Source: Amoebophrya sp. A120 (Eukaryota; Protista; Dinoflagellata). Taken from it: a stretch of DNA of 64,000 bases. Each line of letters begins with the position of its first letter. Positions within the stretch are counted from its first letter, which is position 1. The stretch is from NCBI GenBank assembly GCA_905178155.1, contig CAJINV010000003.1, forward strand, positions 2,251,065 through 2,315,064, written 5' to 3'. A program made the translations under genes and the position numbers. This document shows, piece after piece, positions 4,441-35,432 of the stretch. The notes under the pieces were generated by a model. That model was not told where the DNA came from. It made no database searches and saw only the letters and a program-made list of their open reading frames with translations.

Positions 4441-5088
4441 GGTTAGAACCGTTCGGTGACCTCACTACATACAAGAACTTATCTTGGGGCGGCCATTGCG
4501 CGCTCGACTTCCTCATCGCAATAACAAATCGTGGAAGAATAATATATTCAAAGCCGTATGTGAACAACATACCTGGCAAACGCTTGGTGTAAGTCAGGGG
4601 CGTGTCTAATACCGGAATATCGCAATCGAATCAACACGTACATATCTCAGGTTTGTGATTTTGTTGTCATGATTAGGATTAGTCTACAAAACAAATTCAT
4701 AATTCAATTCTGTTTTTAGCTTTACAAGGCAATCGGGTCGAATATCGATAGGCCGCGGTCACGGTTCTGGTTTACTTAGGCTAGTGCTGCACGCCCGTAG
4801 CAATGATCAGTGCATGCTTTTCAAGAAGCGAAAGAAACAAGTAAGATTTTTCATTGAACTTAAAGTTTGTTCCATACTGTGCAAAAATTACAAGGCAACT
4901 GTAGCAGGAGTTGAAGATTCCTGAAACGGAATCGGAATTTCAATTTTTCTTGACGAAACAAGAATAAAGTGTTGCTGTTTATTCATCATCTTGCTCTTGG
5001 TAGTGAAATTTAGAAAACGCTTCTTCACTCCTCGATAAATTTACAACATTTAGACAGAGCAACGTCGTTGGTTTTCTGGCGAAAGCTC

Positions 5089-9095: not shown

Positions 9096-9457
9096 GTTCT
9101 TCTTGATGATGATGTTCTTGTTGCGTTTTTAGATATGTCGTGTCCTTGAAGATGCAGCAGGAGCTCACGGTCCCTCTACTTCGATCGATGGGATGAAATG
9201 TTGATCGATCACCGTGCGAATGAGAAGCTCACGCTGTTTCTCCTTGTTCTCAGTCCTCCAAACAGCAACTACTACCCCGAGAAACTTTTCCTCACACACT
9301 GGGAGCTCAAGGAAGTTATCGTTGGCGAACACCAAGCGGGACTCCGAGATGGGTCCCGGCAGAACGCGAAGGCCGGCAGATTCTCTTGTGGTTTTTGATG
9401 TAAGTAGTTTGAGCTACTTTTGCTACTTTTATCGGCGGCAATGGAACATCAAACATT

Positions 9458-12400
9458 TCAGTCCTGCGTCCCAAGCCAGCTGGTCACTGCTTCTACCATT
9501 TGTTGTGTAACGGCTTCTCGGACTTTCCGGTCCTGGCGCTCTTCCGCGAGTAGCTCCTTCAGGTAGCTGTGCTTCTCCGTCAAAAAGCGAGATAACCGGG
9601 TTTGCATCTGCCGCCGTTCGTCCGTTTCGTATTTGAGCATTTCTTCCGTCTCGCCCAGTCGCATGTCGATCCCCTCTGCGACGGTCATCTGAGGGAGTGT
9701 AATCTCTATCTTTTTCTTCGAGTTTATTTTCCCGCTACGGCCAGGGAAATGCGAATCAAAAGAGGCGACGCGTTCGCAGGTTTCTGGTTCTTGTTTTTCA
9801 TATCAGTTGTACCAGCATGCTGATGAAAAATTATTGCATTGATCTGAACATTCATACCACTCTCTCCCCAGCATTGGCAAGCTTGGTTTCCAGGTCGCCG
9901 AACTCTCTTCGCACGTGCATCGCTCGTTGGTGTATTTCCACCAAGGGTTGTCCGCTCAGGACCGTCTCTTGCAGGAGCTGGATTTCTTGGATTCCCCGCG
10001 CCGAGTGGTGGGCCAAACTGACGTACGTGGGATCAGTTGCAAAGCTGATCAGTTCCTCTGTTGTGTCCAAAGGATTACTTAAGTACGCAAAACACATCTT
10101 CACCTTCGTATGGTCGCACGACCAGAGCCGCGCGTGGTAATCTGTAGAGCACCATTTGATGTTTTTGATCGCGACGGCCGTGACTAGCAAACATACCGAC
10201 GAATGATAAAGAATCAACATCACACCACATCAAACTACCGAGACGATTTGCCAGCCGCTCGACCCTTTCGGCAAGGTTCATCTTGGGGAGCAGCTGGTAC
10301 CGCGCGACCACTTGCTGCACCTCATTTACCAAATTTCGCAGCTCCTCTTCTTGTACCGCAGTTACTTTGTTCACTCTGGTTTCCAGCCGCTCCACTTCCG
10401 CGACGATGCGCGCCGTCGCTTCGGCAAGCGGCTTATCAAATGCAAAAATGTCTGGGTCTGGAATAATGTAAAATTTGTGATGCATTTTTCTCATGACCCA
10501 CGATGCCTGTAATGCATGACCTAGCATCGCAGACTTTTAGAGGGCTTCCTGATGCACCTTCCGAATGAGAAATGCCCTGTCCGTGTAGCACAAACGGCGC
10601 CTCTCTTGCTGGTCACGCAATACAAATTTTGTTAGAGTCCAAAAACAGCATGACAAGTTGCAATCTTCCAGACCGAGACATTTTTGCATTTGATACGGCT
10701 TTTGCGCCTTCGCCTCCGCGTAGTTCCCGGTGCTCTTGTATCAAATGCAAAAATGTCTGTGTCTGGAAGAATGCAACTTGTAATGCGTATTTCAGAACAC
10801 AGAAAAGTCTCTCATGCATACGTAGCAAAAGCTCCCTTTTTTTGTCAGCGAAATAGGGGACTTGTCATGCGGATTCGGCATTGCGGAAGGTTCTCGAAAC
10901 CTGTGATGCTAGAGCTTCCATGCCAGACCTTCTGTGTCATGCAAAAACAGCATGACTCTTCCCGACCCAGACACTTTTACATTTGATATCTTGCTCCGGC
11001 GAGGACTCGCTCGGGTCGAGGCCTTGCTGCTGCCCGCGTAGTTTCCGGACGACGCATTCGAGGATTTTGACCCTGGACCTGCACCAGCCTCCGTGGTATA
11101 ATCTTGTCCCCTAGGCGGGCGCCCCCCTCTGTCTTCGTAGCTGCTGGACGATTTTGACGCATCCGGCAGCCACGACCCACAGGTCGCACCAAAGGGCGCC
11201 TGCTCTGAAGCGGCCCGCTCTCGCCTGGTGGCAAAACTGGACGACCCACCAAACTTGGTCGCGGTCCTCAGGGCCGCAGTGTCCTTTCCAGTAGATCCGC
11301 TAGGGCTGCAGGGTTCTCGTGCCGCGGCCACGTAGCTGGCTGCGACCATCTCAGCTGCCTTGCGCAACTCGCGTGTGAGCCTACTGCGCACGCTGGCTTT
11401 CAGCCCGGAAGTGGCCGTGAAATCCGCCACCGTTTTGTCGAACAAAACCATTTTCTCTTGCGTCACGCGGGCCTGGCGGAGCGCGTTCGGCCCGCCGTCC
11501 TGCTCCGCGCACTGCTGCAGCTCCGCAACGTATTCGGCGAGGAGCCGTTCCACCAGCGGCTCGAGGTGCAGCTCCTTGCAAACGCGGTCCGCCGCTCCCT
11601 CCGGGCGGATCCGCCCGGAGCTTTTATCGTTGATGTCGCGCACGACCTGCTCGAGAAATAAGGCCACCTCAGCGCCGCTGCGCCATTTCGTGCCTCTAGG
11701 AACTGATTTATTGGCAGCCGTGCGGTTGTTCGGGTTCCTACTTCCGAGCTTGTTGTGGTCCTCCTGCTTCTCGACAAATAACTGCTGTCGTAAACAGGCA
11801 TATTTCTCCCGGAACACTTCCTCGCATCGGTCGATCAGGGATCGCTTCTGTTGAAAACCCTGCTCTACTTCTGACGGAACCTCAATTCTGGGTAGAGAAC
11901 AAAACTCGAGCGGGTCCGCGAATTCCCCGCGAATGGTTGCGCGCGACAGCCGTCGCGGACTCTTCGTCAAGATTTCGTCCGCAACGCCGCCGAACAGGGG
12001 TGCCAAGACACCGGCCACGTCCTCTTCCAGCTCGGGAAAGCGAGGCGCGTTCACGGCCACCAGCAAGCGCGGCCGCTTCGCGTTTGTGCTGAACTTGACG
12101 AACTGCCGGGCGGTATTGGCCAAGAAGCTTAGATTCTCCAAGTCCCGCTCGTCCAGGTTGCCCATCGTGATGGGCAGCAGCCAGTCCCCAGTGCAGTACG
12201 CAACGAGTTCCAGCAACCCATATTCAGCATAGTTCCCCGGGGATCCGGTCGGATGGAAGGACCCTTCGCAGTCACAGTAGATCAGCGTCCTGGTTTTTGA
12301 CGGTAATAAATGATCGTGGTCCTGACGATACAGATCATGTCGATTTTTATGTTCCACCTCGAAGATGCGTTCCACACGCGCGGCAACGTCAACGCCGACA

Positions 12401-12891
12401 GTTACGTGCTGGAACCCGTGGCCGACGCGGAAACCTCGATCTTTCTCGAATCCTAGCACGGCGTTGCCCACGCTGGATTTGCCGACGCGCGAGCCGCCGA
12501 TCGCAAACACCACCTGCACCTCGTTGTCCTCACTTTTGTTCGCAGCCGCGGCATCGTCGAGAAGGCGCAGCAGCTCGCATCCCGCCTCCTGCAGCTCCAG
12601 CTTCTCCCCTGTCGTGGCCCGCAGCAACGGCGCCGGTCCGTATGTGGTGAAAGATGTCGATGTTGTCTTTGCCTGGATCTGGTCTTGAGGCTCGTCCTGA
12701 ACCTCGCGACTTTCCCTCGCCGCGGCGTGGCTGTGGCTCGCCCCAAACAGGTCTCGAGGTTCAAAAAAGTCATGTAGGCCGCGTACTTGATCGGATGATG
12801 CATGATGGTTGCCGCGAAATAAACCCGCCGCCGAGGATCCACTGCTACCGCCGTGCTGCCCTGTGGTACGGTGTACGACGGATCGCGACAT
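9458..12891 (-). CDS. GBP/atlastin (GB1/RHD3)-type GTPase with C-terminal coiled coil; 5 exons
   Basis: G1 GGSRVGKS, G2 HVTVG, G3 DCEG. Exons 12891-10989, 10733-10696, 10428-10239, 10141-9858, 9688-9458. Two TAT..ATA element introns and two GT-AG introns give one continuous frame (..RRSK-STGNYAEAKAQKP-LAEATARIV..). Confidence 0.8.
10434..10695. mobile_element. Introner/MITE-type non-canonical intron, family A
   Basis: TIR tatcaaatgcaaaaatgtctgggtctggaa...ttccagaccgagacatttttgcatttgata. 5-bp direct repeat cggct at 10429-10433 and 10696-10700. Removal restores the GTPase frame. Confidence 0.92.
10739..10988. mobile_element. Introner/MITE-type non-canonical intron, family A
   Basis: TIR tatcaaatgcaaaaatgtctg...cagacacttttacatttgata. 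Direct repeat tcttg at 10734-10738 and 10989-10993. Removal restores the frame. Confidence 0.92.
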
Positions 12892-14000
12892 CGGTCGACC
12901 TCACGATGTAGTGCGGACCAACATTTTTTGGAAAAAGAAAAAGACCACTTCAAACGCGCAAGGGTCAGACTCAGAGTGAGACGTCAAAATAAAACTTTGA
13001 GGCTCAAAAAGTTGCAAGAACTATTTCCACACGTAACATAAAGATAAACCTGTCGTGATCACTTTGAATGAGTACGGAGACTTGCGGTTCGCATACGTCG
13101 GTCAGAAATGGACAACGCACAGTTAGGCATATTGATGCATCGGTTCATCCGAACGGGGTGTGCCAGAGACTACACTTGCATGTCGACTCGGGTTCTTTAA
13201 CGGCTACAGCGAACTCCGCATACGCTTCGCACACCATGAAACGCAAGACACTGGAAGTGAATCACTGGAATCTCATTTTTCCTTTGCCTACTTCAAAATT
13301 TCTCTCGTTTGCATTTTTTTTTGGCTGAAAAGGATAAGGAGATGAACACGGAAAAACCTGAAGAGGAAAGCGGCACCTACAAAACCCGACGCAGACAGAG
13401 CGTAAAAAAATCCCACGCCACCAACAGGCGGTCAACTTTGTCTGTGTAGAAATTTTTTTTGTTCCTTGGGAAGTTGTTTCGACGGCATTTTCTAGGAATC
13501 AGTGAACCGTACTGATTGATGATAATAATATGGTTTTGTTCGAAAAAATTGGACAATAACAGAACTCCACCCGCTGATACATGGGAACGAGAATCTTCCT
13601 ACATTTACGTTTTGTGTTTCGGCTCAGAGCTGAAAGGACAAGAGCGACTCCTGCGAAAGATCTCGGTGATACTTGGTGCTGGGTGTTTTCAAGGTGATGC
13701 ATCGGCATTCTCATTCATTTGAATTTATCATTTTCAAGGCACAAAAGTAGACGTGGAATGTTGATACAGTGCGGTTGAGTTTCGTACATTTGAAAAGTGC
13801 AAGTTTCATTTACAGTCTGTCACTTTTTGCCAATCACCAATGGCATGCAGTATGGTTTCTCCTTCGTTTAGAAGATGACAATATATAGTGTCGAATGCAC
13901 GCGGCGGCGGTGACATCTCCAGCATCAAAGAGTCTTTCGCATTTCTATTCTCTGTGAAATGCTACAAATTCGGCGTGCATTTTTTAACTTCTCCCTCTAT

Positions 14001-14750
14001 TTAGGCAGATTCCTTCTTCTCCTCGGCCGGGGCAGCCTCTTCCTTCTTCTCTTCAGCCGGAGCGGCAGCCTCTTCCTTCTTCTCTTCAGCCGGAGCCGCA
14101 ACCTCTTCCTTCTTCTCTTCAGCCGGAGCGGCAGCCTCTTCCTTCTTCTCTTCAGCCGGAGCAGCAACCTCTTCCTTCTTCTCTTCAGCCGGAGCAGCAG
14201 CCTCTTCCTTCTTCTCTTCAGCCGGAGCGGCAGCGACTTCCTCCTTTTTCTCCTCTTCCTTCTTTTCCTCGGCAACAGGGGCAGCTTCCTCCTTCTTCTC
14301 CTCAACCGGGGCCTCTTCCTTCTGTTTTATTTTTCGTTTATCGTTGTCAGATTCACCATAAGCAATCTCATTCCGATATAAACAAACATCAAACTACCTG
14401 CACACATTAATTCGGTTTGCATTTCCTCAGACGGTGACAATCTGAGTCGAATCGAAACAAAGATAAACCAGCGAAACACCATCCATACCTTTTCCTCAAC
14501 CGGGCTGGCTTCGTTGGAGGAAGGGCTCTTTTCGCCGGCGTCAGACGGAGTGGGGCTGTTTTATTTTGATATGTTTATTTTTTCACATCCTACTACTACT
14601 TCGCACAAGAAAGACCTTCGAACTACCATCTGCAAAAACCATACACAAAACCAAAAATCAGTACGCTTCCTCCGTTTTCTGCTTTTTCAGGGCCGGCTCC
14701 TCGATGGCCTGCTCCTGTTCGACGACGACCTTCTGTTCGACTTCAGACAT
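14001..14750 (-). CDS. Small acidic disordered Glu/Ala/Lys-rich repeat protein; 3 exons
   Basis: Exons 14750-14665, 14555-14489, 14321-14001 with GT-AG introns. Reads MSEVEQKVVVEQEQAIEEPALKKQKTEEA...(APAEEKKEEAA)n...KKESA*. Confidence 0.8.
14010..14235. repeat. 33-bp coding tandem repeat (~6-7 copies, APAEEKKEEAA)
   Basis: ggcagcctcttccttcttctcttcagccggagc units. Confidence 0.9.
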
Positions 14751-15262
14751 TTTGTTGGACTGTGTTGTGAGCGTGATACGAATCAAAAAATTACGCAAAA
14801 AGAAAATATGTTGAATTGTAGTGCCTAGCAGAAGCAGAAAGCAAGCTGGTACTCGAAAAAGTAGTAATCAAGTAGTTGTGCTCCTGTATTGGAAGATTTG
14901 AAAAGCTTGAGCAAATATCAAAAAGAATCGAAGGCGGAAATTTTCATGCGCCAGAGAAAAAACAACACTTTACTGATGTAGTTACCGAGAAAACAATGAT
15001 CAGATCGGCCAATATTTTTCTATTTATGAGATCATATTGTGGATCGCCGCTGCTGGCATTTGATCTTCTTTCATTCAACGGCTCTTCCGCATGAATCATT
15101 GTTATCCTGCAAGCATTTCAAATGCCTTTACTCGCGAAAAGCGAGTGTTCGCTTTGTCTCCAGTAACAATCGATCCAACAGAGCCTTGCTCCTAAATTTG
15201 CAAAACTCGTCGACGCCATTGTCTGTGTCCTGAGCATCGCGCATGGCGAAAATAAATTGTCC

Positions 15263-20413: not shown

Positions 20414-22080
20414 TACGGGGAAGAAAACTCGTCTGCCATCACTTGCAAAGTGTTCATGTAATTTCTTTCAAAAGAATGAAGTCTATTTCTATTGATTTGC
20501 ATGGGTCCAAGCCAAAAGATGGTTCGTTTCTGCCAGCGAAGAGGGCGGTCTTTTTTTGGTGCACGACAACGGACGTGGCTGTTACTCAGGCGGTCTTCTG
20601 CGATCGCAATGGTGTGCGGGTCGGACCTTGTCAAGAAACAAACTGAAACTTCTCGTCCTCACACCGCAGCTGCAATTTGCTTCTTTATTTTATCGGGAGC
20701 TGACCGACCATGTATCAAATAAAGAATTCTATTGATGGGTATATAATCATATCAGCATTTCACATGAGAACTCTAAACATCAAGATCGCGTTTCAAACGC
20801 GTGAGAGTCTTGCTCTGCAAGAAATCCACATCAGGAAGAACTTTTTTTTCGTTTTCTCGGGGAGTATATCTTGCTGTAAGAAGTTGAAGTTCAAGCATCT
20901 GAATGCCGATAGGGGGAATCAGCTCTAAGACGTACCTAAAGTAGTTTGTATAGGGTGTATAAACGTAGGAACTAGTATTCAGATCGTTTATAATTATCTA
21001 TATCTTCATTGTCGCCAAAATTCTACATAGAGAGCTACACACCGTAGGATTTATTGGTTCAGGTTCTTGCGTACTTCTACAGATAGCATCGCCTCCTCCA
21101 TCCTGGCTTTCCGGTCGCCACCAGAAAAATCTCCACATAGAAGGTGGCAAAGAACCGTGACGTCGTCACTAGAACAGACTCGTCGTTCTAGAAACTTCTT
21201 CTCCTGTTGCTATAGCCCCTTGTAAGTGTATGTGTAACTACATTGGATTCACAATGCTTAAGCTGCTCTTTCAATCGTTTCCCATATCATAGTCGTACCT
21301 CTAATTCATTGAAGTATTCATTAGATGTCTCGAGAAAAACTCTAATCGTTTCTGCCAACAACACTAGTACCAGTGAGTTAGAAGATACAGTGCCGGTCTG
21401 CGAGATGCAAAACCTGCACGCAGACATCGTAAAGATACAGCCAAATATCGACGGATTTGATAGCGGAGTTGAACTTTGTCGGTCCTTTCGTTACGAGTAC
21501 CTGTAAGCATAGTGATGTAGCGATGGTGTCACCAACAATTTGACCACGAAACAGACGCCCTTGCCTCAAGGATGATCATGTTGATGTTCATGACGAAATC
21601 TTGATGTAATAAATCGAGGTCGAGGATGAAAAAAAGGCAAATGAATAAATACCAGGAAAATAGTGAAAACCGTGGCCGAGATTCGAGCAGCAGTTAGATC
21701 CTGCCGCGAAGGTCGAGATTTTTTCGTACAGCGGAAAATTGTCACCGCTTAAGTTTTTCGTTCGATTGAAACTTGTCCTATTTCAATTCCTCGGAGCATA
21801 TTACCTGGAAAAATATGTCGTCAACCGGGTCGCCAGCAAAAGCATGAGTACAGTACTCATGACCGCCTATCGCGAATGCTACAGAAGCAAGAATAGCAAT
21901 CAATATTACCGTGGGACGAGAGAATTACATCTACAGTTGTACCACGCGACGCATAAACAATGGTACTTTAATGGTAACTAAGCACCACGAACGCCGCACA
22001 GGAATAAAGAGTACTACTATACCGAATAGGTTGTTCGAAACGAGTCTTTCGTTCGAAGTAGCATCGCTTGTCGAAGGAGT

Positions 22081-23999
22081 TCAAAAAGAGTCCGCTGTCA
22101 GGTGGTCGTTCGGTCGTACCGAGTCCAGATCCGGTTCGAGCAAGTACGTTATGACCTTGCGCAGCTCCCCCTCCCCCGCATTTGCATTTCATAGAAGGCA
22201 TTGCAAACTAACACCAGCGCACGAAGAACATGTCGAGCAGCGGCCCTGCTCGCATGCCAAGTTCAGGCACCAAGTGCCGGTGTCCTAGTACTGTTCTTTG
22301 GGCAGGATCCCGATGATTTTAGTACCATGCAAGGATAATTGCCACCAGCCAGCAACTGGATAGGAATCCAATTGATTCTTGTTTGGGACTTTGCATGACA
22401 ATTGAGGGTAAGAGGTGGGAGTTGTGCTTTCTCATATACGTCAGGGGAAACTTGCCCTCGGGATCCATGGCAGTCAACACCGAGCTCCGGATATCCCTGA
22501 GAAAAAAGCAGGCAGGGGCAGGGCAGCTAATGCAAAAATAAATACACAGAAAAATCTGTCATGGGCGACCCCATAGCACCCTGCTTAGGTGGATGCGCAG
22601 TGTATTTATTTTTGCATTACAAGTATGACCTGCCTGCTTTTTTCTGTGGGATACCGGACCTGCATCCGCGCACCGCCGGACACGGCGGCCATGTCCTGTG
22701 GATACCGGAACTCCTGCAGTCCGGGACCGCGGGAGTTCCTTATGGAGTGCAAACATTTCTGGATCTGGAAACTTGTAATGCTGGGTTGGGAGTAGTGAAT
22801 GCTCTGTAATGGTGAACAGCCAAGCATGAGAAAATATATCTGCGCTGCTTAGTGTTGCGTTTTCCGCATGACAAACTGCGTTTTTGCATGACAAGTAAAG
22901 GGGTCTCTCTTTGACCACGCATCACAAACTCTTCAGTCATGCCAGACAAGCATGACAAACCTTGCATCCTTTCAGACCCAGACATATTTGCGGTTGATAT
23001 CCCTCGGGACGAGCACATTCTGGTTCGCGAACTCCAGAGACACCCCGTCCTGTTCGGTTCCCAAGTCCCACTGCTCCACGGACCCCTCGCCGAAAAAATT
23101 CATGGGATACTCGTGGACGGGCTTGCGGTAGTACAAGGTACGTCCCGTGAGGCTGCAATAAAAGGGCACTCCCTGCCACTTTGCGGCCCCTGGGCGTATC
23201 GGGTTGAACAGAAACTCGCGCAAACCGTTGTTCTCCATCGGCACCTCCGGCTGCGTCGAGCACAACTCCTTGATCAACTGGCCAGACACCTCGCACTTGT
23301 CCAACGAGTACAGGTCCCACCACTTGTCCTGCGCCAGCAGGACCACATCCCGCTGCATGGCGGACAAAATGCACCCCGTCTTGTGGGTGTGCTCGGTTGA
23401 CGCCAGATTCTTATTCCGCGGTGCAAACAGGACCAGGTCGGGGAAATAAATTTTATCAGTCGAGTAAAAACTAGCTGTGTCTTTATATTTATCTTGTTCA
23501 CATGATGGCAGAGAAACAAAAGGATTTTGCAATGCAGCCAACAGCTAAAAAAGTAATTTTGATTTCGATGTGTGTAAAAATAGTATAGTCCCGATTTACC
23601 ATAACAAATCACAGATTTTAGTCATGCGTATCGTGCAAAACAATGAGCAAATCTTCACGTCTTTCCCTAGTCCTGCAGTAGTTGCGGTGAATAAATCTTT
23701 TCCAGAAGTTCTGCTTGCGCTTCATCCACAGGAACAGACCATGCCTGCCCCCACGGAATCATGGTTCCCTTTCCCCCACGTCCGATGCTATCGTTGCCCC
23801 GACCGTCGCGTCTCTTTCCCATGCCCTCGCCCTGTCCGAGACCCCCTTTTCCAGCTGCATCTGCTTCCGACGCCGCGCCCATGCTGTTTTCGAGGCCCTT
23901 TCCACCGGCTGCGCCGGACTGGGACTTGCCTCGTCCTTGTCCTCCCGCACGAGCGGGGGGAATGCACTGCGTCGCGAGGCTAGTAACAATATCCTGCAT
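22081..23999 (-). CDS. Hypothetical protein interrupted by four TAT..ATA element introns
   Basis: Exons 23999-23694, 23448-23000, 22735-22654, 22486-22437, 22144-22081 give one frame (..LLEKIYFPDLVLF..VPRDSRGPGLQEF..MQVRSSVLTAMDPEGKFPLTYLLEPDL..DSF*). The 3' end could continue through further exons. Confidence 0.7.
22150..22436. mobile_element. Introner-type intron, family F
   Basis: Imperfect TIR tatgaccttgcgcagctccccctc / tatgagaaagcacaactcccacctc. Direct repeat tacgt at 22145-22149 and 22437-22441. Removal restores the frame. Confidence 0.8.
22492..22653. mobile_element. Introner-type intron, family B (long ~55-bp TIR)
   Basis: tatccctgagaaaaaagcaggcagg...taatgcaaaaataaatacac inverted at both ends. 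Direct repeat ccgga at 22487-22491 and 22654-22658. Confidence 0.9.
22741..22999. mobile_element. Introner-type intron, family A (diverged)
   Basis: tatggagtgcaaacatttctggatctggaa...ttcagacccagacatatttgcggttgata. Direct repeat ttcct/tccct (1 mismatch). Removal restores the frame. Confidence 0.82.
23454..23693. mobile_element. Introner-type intron with degenerate TIR
   Basis: TAT..ATA ends and direct repeat aattt/aatct. Removing 245 nt joins ORF 23667-23999 to ORF 22972-23541 in frame. Confidence 0.7.
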
Positions 24000-25619
24000 T
24001 GCGCCAGTTTTTGCTTACCGTCACTTACAATAAGAGATAATTGATTTTTATTAGTTTATATACAAATGCGAGAACGCTTAGATACGAATTTATTAATCAG
24101 GAGTATACCCTTTGTACCAGAACAAGAAAACAACCACGCAGTACCGAAGAAGGCGCTTTCACCCTGCCTTTGATATTTTTATTTGTATCTGAGAAAACCG
24201 TATGTGATGTACTCCCACGCACAGTGTTGACAGGTCCGAACTGATTTGCTAACGTCGCAACGAGCTTCGAACTAGCTAGTACTGTAGTCACCACTAAAAT
24301 CTAAGCAAAGCTACCTGCTATAGTACGTTGATTCAATTGATGTTGATCATGAATTGTGTACACTATACTCCTTTGAGGTGTGACTGGATGCCATCCAGCC
24401 CAATCGCAGGTCCATGCGCAAAAAAAACAATCAAGACAGCAAGAAACGCACGCAGACATAGTGTTTCTTGATCTTGTTTTGTAGTTTCTGTTGACAGATA
24501 ACGTTGTAGCACACTTCCGCTTCCTAGCTTGCAATTAGTGCGTGACAACTTCTGAAATCTGCAAAGTTTCGCCTTGCATGCAAGCCACTTTGGAGATACA
24601 GGCGAATTCTCTTCTGTCACGCAAGATGAATATCGGCGCGCTTTCGGTTTTTTCTTAAGCTTACTTTGCTGTCACACGAACACTCAGAAAAACCCAACCA
24701 CATTGCTTTCCTTTCATTTCTTTATCTTGCGCCCTTGTTGTAACATGTGAGATTATAGAAGTTTCGACAATGATTGGACTCTGTTATTTGCATCCTTGTG
24801 CCTTTTGCAGAAAAATTGCGAGAAAAGAATCAGATGACAATGTGGTACGAAAGAGCGACAACGTTGTCGATAAAAAAGCACGTTGGCTCTTCAGTATCAT
24901 AAGGTCATTTTCAGAAAAAAAGTGAGACAGTAAGGCAGATGGTGGATTTACGCGAAATCGAAAACGAAATCCTTGAAGGGTAGATATAATTCTATTCGCC
25001 GCACGGAGTGAAACTTGCTCTGAGGACGTCAGACCATCCCTACTCGCTTTCAGGGTATAAAAGCAAAGAGAAATAACGGCTCCAGGACCATTTTGCTCGT
25101 AAAAAGAGTCCTCGACAGCCGTTCGTAGGAAGATAAAAGTCGCCTGCTGTGAAGTCATCTTTCCAGCTAATTGCTACTGAGAGCAGTGCAGCCAAAGACG
25201 CCCAAAAATTTTGTTCTGAAAACGTAGACTTTTATTTGACGATGCCGCTTAAACGTGGATCTTGATGTTCTGTTGCTCTAGTAGTCCGAGGCCCTTTTTT
25301 TCACGCGAGGTGCAGGGGCGTCCTATCGTCATCGGGCACCAGCTTCCTACGATGAAAAACCGCCTATGCTATGATGCTGCACGGTCTTGTGTCGCGACGA
25401 ATGTAAGGTTTTGCACTGAATATTATAGGGAGTAGTTCTTCTCTGTGCATCTTCTATCTTCCACAAGATGTTGTATGACAACAAACTACTCCAAGTTCTT
25501 ACAGCAGCGCAATCGGCGGATAAAGAATGAAAACCCGCGAGTGCTGCCCCCGAAGAGGGTTCTACTTTAGGACGTCGGACCCTCAATTATGCGGCGTAGC
25601 AGAAAAACGAATGCAAGGT

Positions 25620-28600
25620 TTATGCGTCGTCCTCGTCCTCCTCGTCGTCTTCGTCCCCCTCCTCGTCGGAGCCGGGCTCCGCTTCCGGGGGCGGGCGGAG
25701 GAAGTGGACGAAGGGGGTGACCTGGAAGATAACGTCCATGCGCCCCGGCGTGTCGTCGTCGACGTCGTCAAACCACGTGAGCACGTCCTCCTCGGAGATG
25801 ATCTCCTTGGAGTACAGCTCCCAGAAGAAGGATTCAATCACTGCGGTTTCCGCGTTGTAGTCCGGGAGCTTCTTCGTGGCCGGGTTGCGCATCTCCGCCA
25901 TCACCCGCGTGCTGGCGTACAGCAATTCAATCGCGTTCACGCTGTCCCCGGCCGTGGACAAAAGTTTCAGCAGCGCGGCCTTGCTGCTTTCCACGTAATG
26001 GATCATCTCGTCCTCCGTGAATGCGGTGAACAAAATCTTCTGGCAGAACAGCAGCAGTGCATAGTACACGTTCTTCTCCAGCACTTCGCCCTCCGGGAAA
26101 AAGTTCGTGGCGTCGAACTTCTCCGCGCTCAAAGACCCGGGAAAGCTGGACTTCAACTGTGTTATAAGGAGTTAGTTTGTAGTGTGCGTGCAGAGATTAT
26201 TATAGCTCATGATGTTGACCAACTTCAATATAAATCTGAAAGTACGCGAAATTTTCATCTACTTCCGATTGAGCCATTTTGGAATTGCTTTAGAGCGCAG
26301 CGTGATCATGGTACTTATGCAAAAGCTTAAGTGGTTTTTGCTCCGATAGCCGCGGCGCAGCTGATGCACCAGTGAGTACTAGTACAACTAGACTACATGT
26401 AGTACCTGTTCTTCGAATTTTGCCATCAGCACTGCGTCGTGATTTGTCGTGAACCTGGTTTTGCGAACCTTCATGAGCTCCTTGCGAAGCTTCTCGTCTG
26501 CCTGTTTCTGTCGTTTTGCCTCCGCAGCGGCAAGTCTCATCTTTTCACTTTCTTCGAAGCCCGCATCCATTTTCCTCTGTTTCTGCGCATCCAGCTCTGC
26601 TTGAACTGCAATAAATTGTTGCGATTTTTAATGTTTGTAAAACTGTATTAATGTAAGTACTTGCTGAAAAAAGGGCGCCAAAAAGAAAGACAAGTGTCGT
26701 TGTATGCAAATTATTGTCGTGCAACACGAAAAATCAGAATCAGTTTAATACTTGCGTTTTTCTTCGCATGCATTTCCTCCTCCGCGGCTCTGATTGCGGC
26801 CCTCTCTGCCAGCTCAGCTTCCCGTGCGGCCCGTTTCTCCTCCTGCTCTTTTTTTCTCTTCTCTATCCTGTGTAAAAACGTCCCCACCCCATAGTTGCAA
26901 TGCAAATCTGCATGCTGAAAATGTTTCTCATGCGGAGCCCCATGAGAGGCATTTTCTAATGGTGTTTTGAGATTTGTCATGCTCCAATCAGCATGAGAGA
27001 CTAGATCTGTAGTGCTGCTGAACTAGCTCAAACAGCACTACACTACGCGTCCAGATTTGTCATGCGAAACAGCCAAAGCTTGTGGATTTGTCTAGCCGAT
27101 TCCCCATCTTGACTATGGGGTGGGGACGTTTTTAAATAGGATATTCTCCTCGGCTTCCATAGCGGCACGCTTCGCGGGAGGCATGTAGCCGCCGGCGCTC
27201 TTTGACCCTTGACTGGTGGAGGTGGTCTTTACCAGTGGCTTGGACTCGGACAGCGGCTTCGATTCGGTTTTCTGCGACAGCTCCTCCGTCTCGCTTTCCT
27301 TGCCCTTGGCGTCTCCTTCCGTGTCCGGTTTCTCGCTCGCCTCCTCCGACTGCTCCTCGGATTCGTCCTCCTCGGCTGCCTCCTGCTCGGACTCGCTATT
27401 TTCATCCGAGTCCACCGCCGCATACCGGTTCACGGTCTTCCCCGGGAGCTTCTCCGTTTTGTCGGTAGCCTTCTCTTATGCATTGCAAATAGGTCTGGGG
27501 CTGGAAACTTATCATGTTGCAGCTGGGTGGCGTATCATGAGGAGTAGACCACAGCAGGTGGCTCAGCATGACAAGAAGTTTCTGAGCCTATCTAGGTGTA
27601 GTTGCGTAGTTTGCATGACAGACTGCGTCTCTGCATGGCAGAAAAATGGGGCCGCTTTTGGGTAACGTGCATGACAGTCATTTGAGAGTCTTGCTAGCCG
27701 AGCATGACAAACCACTTGCATTTTTGTTTTTCCTGACCCAGACATATTTCCAATGCATATCTCTACCCCCTTGGTAGGCTTCCCGGTCTTTATCATGGTG
27801 AACCCGTCGTCCGCAGCCTCCTCTTGAATGTCGTCGACTGAGAGAAGTAGAAAAAGGGAGGAATGTACAGGTAAAATAATTCGAGGGACTGATTGTAGTC
27901 CTGAAAAAAAACTTATCCAAAAAATATGAATCACTCCTATCATGTGTTCTTGAAACAAGCAAGTGTTTTTATTCGCTGGAACCATCACTTAGCAAAATTA
28001 TACCCATCGTAATACCTCCTTCCGGCTTGGTATTGGTGTTGCTTCGTCGAAGGGAACCGAAGTCTGCGTCCTTTTTCTCACTCTTCTCCTTTCCGCCCTT
28101 CCCGCCGCCTGCTGTACGGGACCGCCACCCTGAAAAATGAAACCATGTGAAGATCGAGGGTGAAGCAAAGTGAGATTCGAGTAAAAGCGGATGCGAGGAT
28201 GTAACAACTTCGCATGATATGAATCGGTTCTACTACGTAGAAGACGCAGTACCGCTTTGATGTTCCTGCTACTACCAAAAATGCACGGAAAATGTTGTCA
28301 ATGCGACGTTACTACCTTCTTCGCTTCCACGTCGGTCCCCCTTGCTGTCCTTGTTGCGAGCAGCCTCGCGGTCACGCCAGCCGCCGCCCCCTTCTTTCGG
28401 CTTTTCTCCGAGTCGCCAGGTGTCGGCCTCGTCCGCCTTGTTTGCGTCGCGCTCCGACATCTTTTTCTCTATGTCCACAGCTTTCGCGGACCCGAACGGA
28501 TTGCTCTTGCTCTTGTTGTCGCCGTCTGTGGTTGGAAAAAAAGATTTGAACAAGCACGTCAGTATTATTTTCATTTCTGTTCATATTCTTTGCAATCACG

Positions 28601-29662
28601 ACGCAAGTTTGCCGATCATTGTCTTTCTTTTGCCGAATAAATTGACGAGTCAGTTGTATTAGTGTGGAGATGTTGAAAACAAGAACCAGCTATATACCGT
28701 CCTTTGCGGAGTCCGCTCCCACCGTGCGGGGTTTGAGATTGAGTCTTGGACGCTGTTTGGGTGCCGACGAGTCTTCGTCGCGACCGCTGCTGGCGCCACC
28801 CCGCCAGGACTCTGTGCGGCCGAAGCCGGCGCCGCCGCCGCGACCGAAGTTGTCTTCACGACCCCCCGGGGGACTTTCCTTTTTGAACCAGTCGCCGGTA
28901 TCTGCTCGACCTAGTTGTTCTCCGTCGTCGTCATTCCGACGCCCTGCAAAAGAACAAATACGGTCTTAAGACAAGTACTGGTCGGTTTGTCGGTCCTCGG
29001 CATACAGAGTCAAAGCTCCAAACGACGAGCGGGCCTCCAACATGCAATGAATTGGCGATCGATGAAGAGGATCTCACAATATAGTTTCAGTGTGAAGACG
29101 AAAAGAAGAAAAACATTAGCCAATCATTTTCACATGTACGATAGTCAGAAAAATCATCAACATCTTCGATGTAGTACCAAAGCCGCCCCCGCGATCACGG
29201 TCTCCGCCGCCTCTTCCAAAACCGCCGCCACGGTCGCGGTCTCCGAAACCGCCACGGTCCCCGCCGAAGCCGCCGCCCTCGCGGCGCCACACACCTGTAT
29301 CCGCGGCGTCCCCGTCATCGCGCCCGCCACTGCCCCAGCGGTCCCCTCCCTTGCGCCCACCGTCCCGGTCGCCCTTGCCACCGCCTTTGGGGCCTGATGT
29401 AGGGTTTCAGTGATAGTTGTGATGCCTTGTTCATAATGGAAAAAAATCATGTTGCGGCCGTGGCCGTGCTCACCATCTTTCACTTTTCTGCTTCATTTTT
29501 TTTGTTGGATTTTTTTTTCATGCATCATGAAAAAAATCATTTTCAAAGTAAACCTTTTTGCAACGCCAGACCCTCGGAGGCACTGGGCAAGGCAGACTTC
29601 GCGAGCTCGTCTCCAGCGAACTCATGGAGCGTCAGAGTCTTCTTCTTCGCTTTCGGCGGCAT
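25620..29662 (-). CDS. eIF4B-like protein with C-terminal W2 (eIF4G/eIF5/eIF2Be) domain; 10 exons
   Basis: N-terminus MPPKAKKKTLTLHEF, GGDRDRGGGF repeats, and RPRLNLKPRT and SNPFGSAKAVD (eIF4B motifs). C-terminus ELYSKEIISEEDVLTWF...VTPFVHFL plus acidic tail (W2). Exons 29662-29554, 29393-29178, 28943-28698, 28525-28316, 28129-28004, 27837-27760, 27471-27144, 26858-26752, 26605-26406, 26156-25620 join in frame. Confidence 0.78.
26864..27143. mobile_element. Introner-type intron, family C
   Basis: TIR tatcctgtgtaaaaacgtccccaccccatagt / actatggggtggggacgtttttaaataggata. Direct repeat ttctc. Removal gives ..EAEEKRKKEQ.. Confidence 0.92.
27477..27759. mobile_element. Introner-type intron, family A
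   Basis: TIR tatgcattgcaaataggtctggggctggaa / ttcctgacccagacatatttccaatgcata. Direct repeat tctct. Removal gives ..KGVEKATDK.. Confidence 0.92.
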
Positions 29663-30509
29663 GATTGTAAAATTTGGAATGCAAGATCGATTCTGAATCT
29701 ACAGAAAAGTCGTATCTGAATCTTACAATAGAAACTGAATTGATTGAAAAGTAAAAGCCGCTTTGGAACTACTTACACCCCCTTCAAAAAGCAGCCACTG
29801 TCAGGGAGATATTAGATAAAAGTGTAATCAGGTCATTTCACATACTACAGGAACATGGTTCATTTAGGATCAATTCTTCAGAGATGCCTTCAAAATGATC
29901 TTGGCAAAGCTTCTTGCCTTGTTCTGATCGACCATTTTCTTGTCCAGAAAGGAACAATCTGCTCATTGTGTGTAGAAGAGTCAGCGGAAAAACTGCTCTG
30001 TCTTCGGAAAGAGGAATATTAAAAGGGTGCTTTTATAATGAAAGGATGATGACGCCAACTCATATAATTTTAGGTTCATTTCTTTGCACTGTTGATCGGA
30101 AGTAGATCCATTCTTTGTATTTGTACAGATAGATTCTTTAGTGTAGTGAAGCGAAACGCATGCAGACATTATGTGCAGCAGTGGTTCTCAGTCACTGGTG
30201 GCTTTCATTTGAAAAAAAATTCCTATTTATTCCACTTGGTGTTGATAGGACTGTGCCATCGCTTTTCATTCAACAAAAAAGTATCGTGCCTAAAAACGAA
30301 ATCCACGACTACGCTTGTAAATTCGAAACAACTAGTACGCATGATGATGATCCGTACGAAACAACGACTATTCGTTTCCATATGATACTTTTTTTCCTTG
30401 GTAATTGCAGGTACTTGCCGGCGGGCAGTGTCGCGCCAGCACAGAGTAGTGTCACGGCTGCTGCTCTTGGTTCCTTGTGCCGCTACTTCATGCTACCTTC
30501 TGCGTGCCT

Positions 30510-33500
30510 CTACAAGGGCATTTCCGGCAGGTTCGCCATCTCGTTGCCCGCATGGTACAAGTTGTTGTAGGGCGAAATTGGGTTCGCTGGGAAGGGGCTC
30601 CCGATGTAGGTGTGGCGCTGCGTCGCTCCCGATTGCAACCCTGATCCTCCGAAACCATTTGTCGACAGACCGAGAAAGACGGTTCCGCTCTGACCACTCC
30701 CGGCCCCGCCCTGAATGCAGCCATTCCCGCCGGGTGCGGGACCCCAGCCCGCTCGGCACACGCAGGCAGTGCCATCCGCATTTCGGATTTCCCCCGGGCC
30801 GCTGCACTTTGCGACGCAAAACGAGTTCTGGCAGACCTCAATCGCACTGCACTGCGTCTTCCAGTTCTGCATCGTGCAAGGCGATCCTTGCGTGATGCCG
30901 CCGGGGTTGAAGCACACACCTGGGCTTCCGTTCAGCAGGTTGCACACCTGCGCTTCCGCTGGACAGTCGTCGTTTCCCGTGCACACTGTTTGGTGTTGTA
31001 ATATCAATAGACAAAAATTATGTTGCAGCTCTTTTAATACCATGATGTAATCGCTGTACGACCAGAGAAAACCACATGAAGAAGAAAACAGTTTTGCTTG
31101 CGCCCGGCATATTTGCTGTATACAACACAGGGGCTCATTCACTGAACGAAGCAGTAGGTAGTTGTACTTCTGCTGATGCACAAGGTAGGGTCGGACGCGC
31201 TGCGAAACTTTCCAAGTGGACAGGGCTCACAGACTCCCAGGTCCGCTGGGTCCTGTTGGTTGCAGAATTGCCAAGCTGCGCACTCGTTTACGGCAGTGGC
31301 TTTTCTGCAGGTGTTGAAAGAGGGGTTGCGATTCCGCTTCTGCATCATGGTCAAGAAGCCCGTGTAAGTTGCAAACTCCACCCCGGTCTTTTCGTCCAGG
31401 AGCACGGATGCCGAGGGTCCCTCCGCCTCCATAAACTTTCGGTTTATTTCGCGAATCAGATTCTTCTTCAACCCGGACACCACGTAGTCCGTGCTGGGGA
31501 TTACCTGTTTTTATACGGTTCTTTTCTGCACTTCTTCCTGGTAAAAAAATGAACACAGCAAACTCAAACAAAAGCAAGTATTCGAATAAACGAGAGGCAC
31601 CGGCAACATGTTTCTGTACCATGTCATCTTGCTCGTTGAGTTTCTGGCGGAGTCCTTGTGCGAGGGTGTCGTCGAGCTGTATGACGAAAGTCATGTCGGT
31701 GTAGTCTTTTGGAGTTGTTCCGGGCATCGCCCCGATCGGTAGCACCGTGGTGGTGGCCATGTTAAACAGCTTGCCGCCCGGTAAACTCATGAAACTGTCC
31801 ATGTATATTCTCGTTTTGGCCCCGAATCCGGTGTCGCTCAGACCGTCCGCGAGACCCCGCGCGAGCGCGTCCATAAGCGTTTCTGAGGTTAATTTTTTCG
31901 GATCACGATAAAAACGAGAAAACACGGCCATACCGACGTGCCCGTCCTCCAATCAAAAGTTTTTTTTAGTAACCATCTCGGATATTAGCTGTCACAACAT
32001 GCACAAAAACCCCAAAGCAAAATACTTATCAAAGCACAACAACACAACTATTTCAATTAAGTAGTCTTGTTCCCAAGAAGACTATATCAAATGCAAAAGT
32101 GTCTGGGTCTGGAAGAGGAAGAGTCATGCTGTTTCTGCATGACACAGAAGGTCTGGCATGAGAGCGCTAGCGTCACAGGTTTCGAGAAGCTTACGCAATA
32201 CCGAACCCGCATGACAAATCCCCCATTTTGGTGACAGAAAGTGAGCAGCTTTTGCTACCTATGCATGAGAGTTTTTTGTGTGTTCTGAAATGCGCATCAC
32301 AGGTTACATCCTTCCAGACCCAGACATTTTTACATTTGATAGACTATAACGTCAGTACGTTTTGTCTCGATCATGGTCCCGTCCCCCTTCATGAACTTGA
32401 GCCGCAGCAAGACGGTGACCTTCTGTTTTTCCGTGGAGGCGACGCCGCCGTCCCCGGGTGCCTTATCAAATGTAAAAGTGTCTGGGTCTGGAAGAATGCA
32501 ACTTGTCATGCTAAATCTGAATCAGGCAAAAAACTGTGTTGCATGATTGCCAAAGTTGTGCACTTTTGACCTAGTCGAGAGGTAGTTTCTCATGCAGGAT
32601 AGGCATTGGAAAGATTTCGCAGAATCTGTCATGCTATGTCCTACATACCAGACCTCATGGGTTATGGAAAACCTGCATGACAAATCTGGCAATCTTCCAG
32701 ACCCAGACACTTTTGCAATCCATATGCCTTGGTCGACTGCAGCTCCTGCGCGAAGCCCATGCACACGTCCTCGACGGACTCTATCGAAGGGAAAATCCCC
32801 CCTCTCCATATCGAAACGAAACTTCTGACGCTGGATCTGTGTACACAAGTCAGAGCTGTCTTGCTGGAGAGGGCTGCAGGCTCATACTGAGTGCGAGCAA
32901 AAAGGTTTTGGCCTAGGCGCTTTAGCATGAAAAACGTCCGCACTATAGGCCCAGCAGCATGACAAACCGCCTGCACAGTCTGGCGGACCCTGCGGAGTCG
33001 CCTTCTTGCAAGACAGACACGATTTGTGGCCACAAATCAGCATGACAAATTTCCAAAACTAAAAGTATACCTTTTCAGTATGGGGAGGGGGGATTTTTCC
33101 TTTTGATAGACTCCCCCTCGCGCACCCGGTAGCAGTCCCCCGGGTTCTTGTCGCAGGGCGCCAGCTTGGCGGCGTCGGTCATGGGGTTCGCGGCGCAGTC
33201 CGACGCCGAGGCGGGGGTTTTCCGCACCAACGTTATGAGGTTCTCAAACGTTAAATTCTCAACTGCTACATGGTTTGTCTTGCAAAATGACCATGACCCG
33301 CCAGACGATCAAGGTGCTTCGCATGACAAATTCTCGGAAGGCTAAATAGCACTGTAATCCGGATCAAACCTGTAATGCAAGACGCGCAAGGTTCTCCCTC
33401 TCACCTGTGCTAGTCTTGCATTACAAATTCATGTGACAGTTGAGAATGTAACGCTTGAGAACGCCATAAACGTCGCCGCCCGGTTCGGCACATCCATGGC

Positions 33501-35432
33501 CTCGTTGTAGAGGCAGCCCAGGCATTATGAAAGTGCACAACCCCCCCTCCCCCTCATTTGTGATGCAAAATACCGAATCCACCACTTGTCTTGTGCTGAA
33601 GGAATGTTTGCATGACAAATTTCGGAACAACCTGAAACAGTGCTACAATCCGTGTGTAGATTTGTCATGCAGAAGACCCATTTCTGCCGTTGCCTGTGTT
33701 GCCGTTCGTGCCTTACAAATAAGGCGGAGGGGGAGTTGTGCATTGTCATAGACAGGTCATGGCGAACAGGTTGTACTTGGTCTTCGGGTCTTGGCTGTAC
33801 ATCATGCGGCAAGCGTCCTGTCGCGCGGGCGTCAACTTTGCCACGGGCGCGTTTTGGCACGCCTCCTGCAAGCCAATCTTGCGGACCAACAGGTGGAGTT
33901 TCGACAGCGTCAGCCGCACCCAGTCTTGCTGTGCAGAGTGTTTGAGATAAAAATCTAAATTTTGCGGCAGAAGTAGGAGCACGGAATGTCATCTACGCTA
34001 AACTGTACTACCCAGAGACCAAGACTGCACTACTACTTCGAGTAGAAAAATCATTTAGTCGTTCTTACCCCCATCTCACTGGTCCCGCCGGTGATGTTCT
34101 GGCAGGCGTCGGAGTAGACGTCACGGGCCGCCAGAATTCTTGCGTTATACCAAGCGATGGAGTCGGCGGCGGGGAGCGTTTTGTTTGCCACCAGCGCGTC
34201 CTGCAGCTCCTCCAACAAAAGTTCCAGGTCGCTGGTCAGCAGGTTCTGGGAGAAGTAGCCCTCGAAGTCCGCCGCCTCGGGCGGCGGGGGGTGGATACCG
34301 ACCGGCACGCCGTAGTCGTACAGCATCTTGCGGCAGTAGGGAATCTTCCGGGTCAACCCAAACTTGCACTTCTTCGACCCGAAGTTGGCCGTGGCGTTGG
34401 CGAGGTTCAGCACGATGCTCTGCCCGTCCGCCTCGCACGCATCGTTCCCCGGCTCCGGCGTGGCGCCAAACGGGGCCTTCGTCTTGCAAACGACGGAGTA
34501 CAAACTGTGTTTCACGTCGGTCTGGTCCTTGTTGAACAACACCATCCGGTCCTTATCCAGTGGAAATATGTCTGGGTCTGGAAGGATCCGAACTTGTGAT
34601 GCGAATTGCGGATCGTGCAAAGATTTGTATTGCATGACTGGCAACAGGTGCTTACTTCTGGCCATGCTGAGCTGAGAGGGTATTTCTCATGCAGAAAAGG
34701 CATCACAAAGGGGCTGCAGAACCTGTGATGCTGGGACACGCATTCCAGATTTGAGGGAGCTAGGAAAAACTGCATGACAAATCTCGGAATCTTCCAGACC
34801 CAGACACATTTGCATTTCATAGTCCTGCTGCGAGTACAAACACCCTGTGGGAAGCTCACCCGTGGACACCTAGAGGGAGGTAGGGTTGTGGTGCGTTTGT
34901 AATTTTTGCTCCTCTAGCTTGAATCAAGATCATTCGATTCATATTCATTCGGACAAAGTTAGTTTCGTATAGAAAGTATCTTTAAACAGTTTGCACTATG
35001 ATCCGAGGATTTTTGCTGACATACCAACTTGACAGTCCCGACTCGACGGTCCAAGCCGAGTGTGACCGCCGCGCTGTCGCACTCCTCGGCACTGGCGACT
35101 TTCTCTGCGCCGGTGGCTAAGCAGGTCGTTGCCGCGCCGTAGTTTTTGTAGGTGGACAGGGAAATCAAGCTGCTTGCGGGGCTCGCCGGCGGGGTTTGCG
35201 CGGCACTTTGACGCAGACTGGTGCGCGAGAATGCGTTTTTCGCCGACGACGAGGCGGCAAGCGCGCTGTTTCCCTCGAACATCGCCGTCTGCATCAGCAT
35301 GGCCTCGGACTGCGCGAACTTGTCCGAACCGGACATTTGCGTGGAGGCCGGTGGTAGGCCGGGGTAAAAGCCCACGGACATCGCGAGTGCCGGCTGGAGT
35401 AATGCGGTAGCATGAAATCCCCGTCTCGCCAT
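30510..35432 (-). CDS. Secreted cysteine-rich (EGF/TNFR-like repeats) protein; 11 exons
   Basis: Signal-like N-terminus and Cys clusters (CEPCPLGKF, ACVCRAGWG). Exons 35432-35025, 34869-34822, 34548-34069, 33928-33751, 33520-33469, 33228-33109, 32776-32725, 32458-32359, 31882-31620, 31504-31168, 30985-30510 join in frame. An upstream in-frame ATG at 35528 is possible. Confidence 0.72.
32085..32341. mobile_element. Family A element nested in canonical intron 31883-32358
   Basis: TIR tatcaaatgcaaaagtgtctgggtctggaag and direct repeat gacta. Full-length inverted homolog of 10739-10988. Removing it alone hits a stop (FLGTRLLN*), whereas the GT-AG intron around it keeps the frame. Confidence 0.88.
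32464..32724. mobile_element. Introner-type intron, family A
   Basis: TIR tatcaaatgtaaaagtgtctgggtctggaag / cttccagacccagacacttttgcaatccata. Direct repeat tgcct. Removal gives ..STKAPGDGG.. Confidence 0.92.
32782..33108. mobile_element. Introner-type intron, family E
   Basis: TIR tatcgaagggaaaatcccccctctccata / tatggggaggggggatttttccttttgata. Direct repeat gactc. Removal gives ..REGESVEDVC.. Confidence 0.92.
33234..33468. mobile_element. Introner-type intron, family D
   Basis: TIR tatgaggttctcaaacgttaaattctcaactg / cagttgagaatgtaacgcttgagaacgccata. Direct repeat aacgt. Removal gives ..RAATLVRKT.. Confidence 0.92.
33526..33750. mobile_element. Introner-type intron, family F
   Basis: TIR tatgaaagtgcacaaccccccctcc / ggagggggagttgtgcattgtcata. 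Diverged direct repeat ggcat/gacag. Removal gives ..AMTCLGCLY.. Confidence 0.85.
34554..34821. mobile_element. Introner-type intron, family A
   Basis: TIR tatccagtggaaatatgtctgggtctggaag / cttccagacccagacacatttgcatttcata. Direct repeat gtcct. Removal gives ..YSQQDRMVLF.. Confidence 0.92.

Follow-up and report, generated by a model that had tools for sequence, protein, structure and literature searches.

Introner Elements of the Window and Their Host Genes

The stretch analysed here (hereafter the window) comprises 64,000 nucleotides of contig CAJINV010000003.1 of the dinoflagellate Amoebophrya sp. A120 (positions 2,251,065 to 2,315,064 of the forward strand; the coordinates below are those of the window), and the identity of its encoded proteins to deposited A120 proteins (100% for P0004, 99% for P0001) places the host as A120 or a very close strain. 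Fourteen short inverted-repeat elements, each named below by its left end, are confined to four genes (10429-10993 and 22145-34826), all with the minus strand as coding strand; the gene that holds 10434 and 10739 is GBP-like, a distant relative of the guanylate-binding proteins. The elements are of a kind already known in the type genome, namely the introner elements of A120, an assignment made in the original prediction and borne out both by the protein identity and by the published TAT and repeat features. They leave the messenger RNA as the element plus exactly five nucleotides, and their terminal signal, mainly on counts from a related genome, is one-ended: in gene orientation the 5' TA is constrained and the 3' end is free, and it is therefore not symmetric.

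A scan of the window for NNNNN-TAT...ATA-NNNNN recovered 11 of the 14 elements with an exact 5-bp duplication and terminal inverted repeats (TIRs) identical at 14 or more of 20 positions, whereas 30 block-shuffled versions of the sequence yielded no match at all; with the termini left free, and a 5-bp direct repeat together with TIR identity of at least 18/25 required, all 10 matches began with TAT. In the other three elements the duplication is imperfect (22741, 4/5 identical; 33526, 3/5; 23412, 4/5), so that the predicted number of elements stands and the exactness of their duplications holds for 11. One left end, formerly placed at 23454, had to be moved 42 bp further left: the true element spans 23412-23693 (282 bp), has a better TIR, and lies at a site across which both P0001 and its paralog P0002 read KI-LAST.

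The view that at least six unrelated TIR families are present had to be given up; indeed, one TIR is common to 7 of the 14 elements (23-29 of 30 positions identical), and the motif GCATNAC occurs in all 14 (44 copies within the elements' 3,638 bp, as against 17 in the remaining 60,362 bp) as well as in 201 of 203 elements of the related genome described below, on which grounds the families would be better seen as one lineage. The window also holds several multi-kilobase reading frames without an intron, and GCATGAC is almost missing outside the elements. As a candidate branch point GCATNAC was rejected, being as frequent near the 5' end as near the 3' one (77 versus 75 of 105) and missing from seven canonical introns without an element; a repeat bound at the DNA level is more likely. 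Short and non-coding, with TIRs, a target-site duplication (TSD) of fixed length and both orientations, the elements correspond in their properties to miniature inverted-repeat transposable elements (MITEs); DNA read depth over them far exceeds that of the unique flanks, as expected of genome-wide repetition. In predicted folds the T of TAT pairs with the final A in 13 of the 14, and the four 3' bases are unpaired or weakly paired.

Removal from Messenger RNA

The RNA evidence consists of contigs of four runs (X3-X6) from a single sample, with 15 of 25 joints listed; none of the runs is recorded as RNA, and they were treated as such because GT-AG introns are skipped in them to the base. Among the joints listed, those at seven elements (26864, 27477, 32464, 32782, 33234, 33526 and 34554) remove exactly the element plus 5 nt, and the contigs concerned also skip GT-AG introns to the base, so that both intron types occur in the same transcripts, as had been predicted. 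For six further elements the same deletion reproduces deposited A120 proteins: 744 of 744 residues of P0004 for 10434 and 10739, and a 269-residue stretch of P0001 for 22150, 22492, 22741 and 23412; since this very RNA may underlie the deposited models, the agreement is not independent of the RNA joints. The rule that one element is removed together with one repeat is thus upheld at 13 sites, by RNA at seven and by proteins at six. The fourteenth element, 32085, leaves together with the GT-AG intron that encloses it (31883-32358). The gene of P0001 (22030-23900) has a paralog elsewhere, P0002, 88% identical; the elements carried by that paralog might give an age for the four insertions in the window gene.

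GT-AG borders are impossible at any placement for the exonic elements of the window, in agreement with the original prediction, and near-canonical placements exist at three of them (GC-AG at 32464, GA-AG at 34554 and GG-AG at 22741). At the DNA level, contigs run unbroken through 22150 and 23412, with a depth similar to that of other unique contigs, and no joined form, that is, no empty site, was found among the DNA joints listed. A further run carrying the same species label (X9) gave 126 mapped reads, all on repeats, with the host genes uncovered; about 115 of its RNA reads, at 32464-32546, join a diverged element end to other flanks and represent a related element retained in a transcript.

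A One-Ended Terminal Signal

A metagenome search with the TIR pattern, the first 11 bases being left free, returned 157 loci, which lie in 12 of the 64 parts into which the collection is divided; 154 of them come from one assembly, near A120 (one exon is 91% identical), which is the related genome of this report. Three stray metagenome matches to the pattern, two viral matches and 11 matches in prokaryotic genomes lack TAT, were regarded as chance and were dropped from the counts. An exact 5-bp repeat flanks 100 of the 118 complete related elements. Within the main family, positions 1-3 are kept in 209-214 of 221 ends (three stray ends included), and the triplet does not stand out because inner TIR positions (6, 8, 9 and 11) are equally conserved, in 210-214 of 221; the comparison with adjacent positions proposed earlier as a check thus revealed no extra conservation of the triplet.

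The two ends differ in what they tolerate. TAT and ATA stand in 14 of 14 window elements, even in the decayed 23412; when one end was left free in the search, 193 of 206 related elements retained both triplets and 13 had one changed end, so that the invariance once claimed is a property of the window. Gene strand in the related genome was predicted by a codon model for which the window served as training set; all 72 of its called test points came out right, some of them lying inside the training exons. In this orientation 12 of the 13 changed ends are 3' ends, and the sole 5' change turns TAT into TAG. In the 174 elements that could be oriented, a broken terminal TA occurs 10 times at the 3' end and never at the 5' end (two-sided p=0.002); with the strictest strand cut-off, which leaves 127 elements, the counts are 7 and 0 (p=0.016). 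As a control, the inner TIR positions 8, 9, 11 and 12, taken together, changed 12 times at the 5' and 14 times at the 3' end (position 11 alone, 0 versus 3). Each of the 13 variants has an open frame of 21-305 codons to its left and to its right, and the splicing of these copies is presumptive.

Part of the TAT triplet is therefore under selection, as had been supposed, and the supposed strand symmetry is lost, because the terminal TA is broken at one end only; the likely explanation is a cellular reading of the 5' TA alone. Symmetry is what the TIR provides in the DNA: whichever way an element lies, its 5' end reads TAT. The original rule holds for length, and not for symmetry, invariance or unrelated families.

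Position of the Cut

At 33526 the two copies of the duplication differ (in transcript sense, CTGTC upstream and ATGCC downstream): the joint runs from 33519 to 33750, two letters fit both sides, and the upstream copy is kept; therefore the 5' cut lies at most one base from TAT. Both mismatches of this duplication are synonymous in the exon frame, and the exonic copy may be the changed one. For 23412, RNA pieces from each of the four runs set in at 23694, free of mismatches, and the upstream copy is kept through position 4; at 22741, P0001 reads PRDS, which is the upstream copy, and the paralog P0002 reads PRNS. At one locus of the related genome (L008), position 5 is where the copies disagree; there the A120 ortholog has the base of the downstream copy, a single indirect case that favours a cut before base 5.

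Taken together, the intron is most likely in the register N|TAT...ATA-NNNN|, cut one base before TAT. Such a cut gives a donor N-TA-T, whose T and A match +2 and +3 of the host donor; indeed, the confirmed canonical donors start with GTA in 8 of 8 cases and carry a pyrimidine at +4 in 7 of 8. Table S4 of Farhat et al. (PMC7789003; here and below, statements on published work refer to those parts of each source that were covered) lists nine predominant non-canonical junctions of A120, all nine with T at +2, that is NT-, and none TA-. The inferred borders lack the U2-type combination of a GT or GC donor and an AG acceptor, and only the T and A at +2 and +3 match the host donor.

Two other indications of register were set aside. 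A cut placed behind the second base of the duplication, suggested by an AG/GT proto-splice site in the window repeats, is refuted by the RNA at 33526 and 23412 and is unseen in 149 related elements. An excess of phase 0 (75 of 149, about 55% being expected from the codon position of the TnG motif described below) was not used, because the codon-position bias of that motif accounts for it. Position 4 of the duplication is short of T in the related elements (11 versus 26.9 expected, p=0.008 uncorrected), a shortage not repeated in the window, where 5 of 13 elements have T at that position.

A Target Motif outside the Duplication

Counted from TAT, 210 related ends show a strong bias at flank position -18 (T, 123) and -16 (G, 122), TTG and TCG being commonest. 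This TnG motif, which lies 11-13 nt outside the duplication, is found on at least one side of 127 of 203 related elements and on both sides of 7, compared with 11-30 elements at other offsets between -30 and -8. On one flank or both, T stands at -18 in 114 of 125 main-family elements (49.8 expected) and in 57 of 78 of the other families (31 expected); in the window TnG accompanies 6 of 14 elements; the intronic 32085 is one of these, and so are 5 of the main family's 7 members. Its side shows no clear tie to gene strand (upstream:downstream, 24:24 when the strand margin exceeds 4, 29:47 under the loosest setting and 37:50 in a separate count) or to element orientation, for which the split is 23:26 in the largest family and 8:2, 7:5, 8:2 and 1:4 in smaller ones.

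An exonic splicing signal was rejected as the meaning of TnG, given the strand split, its presence beside the intronic 32085 and its occurrence in 4 of 7 non-coding-like sites; TnG is read here as a probable mark of DNA target capture by a transposase. Inside all 14 window elements, inward-facing TTGTNATGC repeats lie 30-75 nt from the ends; they open with AACT-TGT or GATT-TGT, which is similar to the flank consensus WWW-TYG-Y, and a single DNA-binding domain might serve for repeats and flank alike.

Table 1: Introner elements, the enclosing intron and TnG motifs, in window coordinates.
Feature	Position	Length	With duplication	Strand	Remarks
Introner	10434-10695	262 bp	10429..10700	-	Exact duplication CGGCT (+ strand); exonic; main TIR family; P0004 744/744
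Introner	10739-10988	250 bp	10734..10993	-	TCTTG; subfamily of 32085, opposite orientation; deposited protein P0004
Introner	22150-22436	287 bp	22145..22441	-	TACGT; P0001; intact in spanning DNA contig
Introner	22492-22653	162 bp	22487..22658	-	CCGGA; deposited protein P0001
Introner	22741-22999	259 bp	22736..23004	-	Imperfect, TTCCT/TCCCT; P0001 keeps upstream copy
Introner	23412-23693	282 bp	23407..23698	-	Decayed TIR; imperfect, ATTCT/AATCT; mRNA keeps upstream copy
Introner	26864-27143	280 bp	26859..27148	-	TTCTC; 285 nt skipped in RNA
Introner	27477-27759	283 bp	27472..27764	-	TCTCT; 288 nt skipped in RNA
Element	32085-32341	257 bp	32080..32346	-	GACTA; in canonical intron; no splicing of its own seen
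GT-AG intron	31883..32358	476 nt		-	Houses element 32085; RNA
Introner	32464-32724	261 bp	32459..32729	-	TGCCT; 266 nt skipped in RNA
Introner	32782-33108	327 bp	32777..33113	-	GACTC; 332 nt skipped in RNA
Introner	33234-33468	235 bp	33229..33473	-	AACGT; 240 nt skipped in RNA
Introner	33526-33750	225 bp	33521..33755	-	GGCAT/GACAG, 2/5 mismatched; 230 nt skipped in RNA; predicted intron 33522-33751
Introner	34554-34821	268 bp	34549..34826	-	GTCCT; 273 nt skipped in RNA
TnG motif TCG	10416..10418			+	At -18..-16 of element 10434
TnG motif TAG	10721..10723			+	Element 10739
TnG motif TTG	27459..27461			+	Element 27477
TnG motif TTG	32067..32069			+	Intronic element 32085
TnG motif TAG	33508..33510			+	Element 33526
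TnG motif TTG	34837..34839			-	Element 34554; opposite side and strand

A Proposed Mechanism and Its Alternatives

The reading held here to be probable, with reservations, is that the elements are non-autonomous DNA transposons removed by a relaxed host spliceosome in the register N|TAT. A DDE integrase-type transposase acting in trans would bind TIR families that share TAT ends and inward repeats, dock at a one-sided TnG and insert the element about one helical turn off, in either orientation, with a 5-nt staggered cut; the relaxed spliceosome would then use the last duplicated base and TAT as a GTA-like donor, offered in either orientation as both TIRs start with TAT, and the predicted hairpin, rather than sequence, would set the acceptor four bases past the far end. 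Selection would retain the 5' TA and leave the 3' ATA free to drift, together with the duplication and the +1 base. In A120 the U2, U5 and U6 proteins, and most spliceosomal proteins, are present and snRNP27 was not detected (PMC7789003); in yeasts, loss of SNRNP27K is associated with +4U donors (PMC10581693). The two separate systems once postulated to act on one pre-mRNA become unneeded, since the N-TA-T donor resembles the GTA of all eight canonical donors.

Several points weigh against this reading. With regard to the register, the outgroup logic applied at L008 breaks down at 22741, since the paralog there sides with the downstream copy, the RNA joints cannot separate a cut before base 5 from one at the TAT edge, and the placements of Table S4 may reflect the preference of the aligner. 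With regard to the chemistry, the contig data contain no lariat, branch point or spliceosome dependence, and the predicted fold leaves the ends unpaired at 22741. The standard spliceosomal active site reads G at +1 and the 3' AG together; in the related elements the +1 base has no excess of G (50 versus 47.8 expected) and AG forms the last two intron bases in 15 of 149 only, and a free +1 base combined with a missing AG rule is hard to square with such a site. The asymmetry and the target motif come mostly from the related genome, for which the evidence consists of DNA sequence and predicted gene strands, and one of the 13 variants, L063, may lie outside a real gene. Finally, no coding partner with the same ends and a transposase was found, either among the 19 open reading frames of the window compared with Pfam or at seven long or unpaired ends read by eye, so that the large DDE-encoding elements proposed as a check did not appear; Farhat et al., having found no transposase, oppose general mobilisation by one in A120 (PMC7789003).

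Longer TAT...ATA elements with exact 5-bp repeats do occur in the related genome (L063, 481 bp; L064, 631 bp; L033, 457 bp), and no transposase-like frame was seen by eye in L063 and L064. At L047:277-560 a main-family element has a truncated and scrambled far end, in surroundings that look non-coding.

In its full form, the proposal is of a spliceosome that needs only UA at +2/+3 and no acceptor sequence, makes its 3' cut four bases off a transposon hairpin and is fed by an unrecognised integrase-type lineage with a one-sided TnG, like a protospacer-adjacent motif, one helical turn from the cut; it is put forward tentatively, with a real but lesser chance of holding as a whole. If it is true, nearly any exon position, in either orientation, could become a precisely removed intron. 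The removal of tens of thousands of such non-GT-AG introns is stated in print to be an open question (PMC7789003, PMC11282704); if the register is fixed, the 5' TA constrained and the 3' end free, predictions follow for the 5' ends of lariats, for the point changes that would block splicing and for the intron borders that aligners place arbitrarily, and the one-sided TnG offers a handle on the missing transposase.

The alternative that survives best, although it appears unlikely, is a separate endonuclease/ligase pathway resembling the one proposed for the nonconventional introns of euglenids, which would read the hairpin and the 5' TA, make staggered cuts and ligate the exons, the likeness to GTA being coincidental. 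It would sit well with the unconstrained +1 base and acceptor dinucleotide, with the possibility of a GT-AG placement in just 7 of 149 related elements, with the long predicted terminal stems, with the failure to detect U1 small nuclear RNA in A120 (PMC7789003) and with the euglenid introns themselves, which pair near both ends, have unpaired overhangs and exit as circles (PMC11282704); yet the sole conserved dinucleotide coincides with +2/+3 of the host donor, 3' changes that break the terminal pairing are tolerated in open frames, and no candidate enzyme is at hand, no search for one having been made.

Spliceosomal or structure-guided removal in another register, either cut at the TAT edge (TAT...ATA-NNNNN) or varying among elements, is improbable: the joints at 33526 and 23412 permit the TAT-edge cut equally, and splice sites are variable relative to the hairpin according to Farhat et al. 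(PMC7789003), but the L008 ortholog favours the cut before base 5, the junctions of Table S4 are NT- with none TA-, and a TA donor would be unlike the host GTA. That TAT and ATA form one strand-symmetric excision signal under equal selection at both ends is largely refuted and very hard to maintain; the retention of both triplets throughout the window and in most related elements speaks for it, but the 3' end bears 12 of the 13 terminal changes, the main-family triplet is no better conserved than inner TIR positions, and transposons would show conserved ends in any case (TA..TA in IS3EU/GingerRoot, PMC10045372). Least credible of all is a domesticated transposase removing the elements from RNA or somatic DNA, which would explain the transposon-like ends, the shared internal repeats and the precise restoration of the target site, but is opposed by the DNA contigs that span 22150 and 23412 intact at ordinary depths, by a constraint that follows the direction of transcription and by the failure to find a transposase in the window or in the fetched loci.

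Relation to Known Systems

A good part of the structure described above is already in print: the TAT start, inverted and direct repeats and a 5-bp duplication with TA ends (PMC7789003, PMC12130899). The published A120 introner elements have inverted repeats made of TAT, seven variable bases and a stretch of As, direct repeats of 3-5 nt and a length of about 240 nt, and lie in genes of mixed intron content (PMC7789003), as do those of the window, whose inverted repeat matches that definition throughout. Their border is given as unknown or variable, and the text of that paper, figures aside, mentions neither a 5'/3' asymmetry nor a flank or internal motif; its Figs 3 and S19-S25 may depict the register or flank logos. 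Family 38 of the A120 introners, annotated as "Ginger; 5-bp TSD, TA/TA Termini" (PMC12130899), shares TSD and termini with the window elements but at 808 bp is unlike them; the automated TSD (2-6 bp) and splice calls for other A120 families are inconsistent, none of the A120 supplement rows covered, 41 of 58, gives a rule common to them, and homology to integrase-like open reading frames is reported (PMC12130899). The register, the 5'-only constraint and the target motif are what the present analysis adds, and the open question of splicing thereby becomes directly testable. No report of the asymmetry, the TnG motif, the shared internal repeat or the fixed register was met in the literature searched, a weak negative, most subscription papers being outside its scope.

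The closest geometry is that of class 12 of the introner-like elements of Polarella glacialis, which has a 5-nt TSD and in which, when the TSD reads NNAGG, the last TSD base and the first element base form the donor and the TSD supplies the acceptor; unlike the window-type elements, which need neither and work in both orientations, class 12 needs G and AG in the TSD and a single orientation (10.1101/2020.10.14.339549). Among transposons, IS3EU/GingerRoot, Ginger2/TDD and IS481EU resemble the elements in their TA..TA or TNT..AYA ends, and Ginger2 in a TSD of 4-5 bp (PMC10045372); differences lie in the usual 6-bp TSD of IS3EU/GingerRoot, in the target preference of GingerRoot, which is merely GC-rich, and in the TG..CA ends of Ginger. 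The TA..TA termini thus fit IS3EU/GingerRoot and not Ginger, the 5-bp TSD fits Ginger2 and not IS3EU/GingerRoot, and no single group has both features.

The nonconventional introns of euglenids and those of Fritillaria likewise bear TIRs, are MITE-like and have non-GT-AG junctions (PMC11282704). Euglenid introns pair +4..+6 with -8..-6 and leave as circles, and differ in their CAG/CTG motif, which is missing at the euglenid pairing positions from the window elements; Fritillaria differs in its AG-AC and AG-AT junctions, handled by an adapted U2 spliceosome (PMC11282704).

Other Features of the Window

The regions 2786-3595, 7683-9128, 10912-12900 and 63444-63998 stand out for a RING-finger protein, a thiolase-like protein and a chaperonin fragment, all from Pfam matches, and for the GBP-like gene described above; a search of the window against Rfam at gathering thresholds gave zero matches. 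Upstream of the gene at 30-35.7 kb lies a tandem array of a 186-bp unit (35933-38897, 15.9 copies, 98% matches), which likewise has no match in Rfam. A patch that looks non-coding (3780-4450) is GC-rich and abounds in short inverted repeats and A/T tracts, in a style that resembles the 186-bp array.

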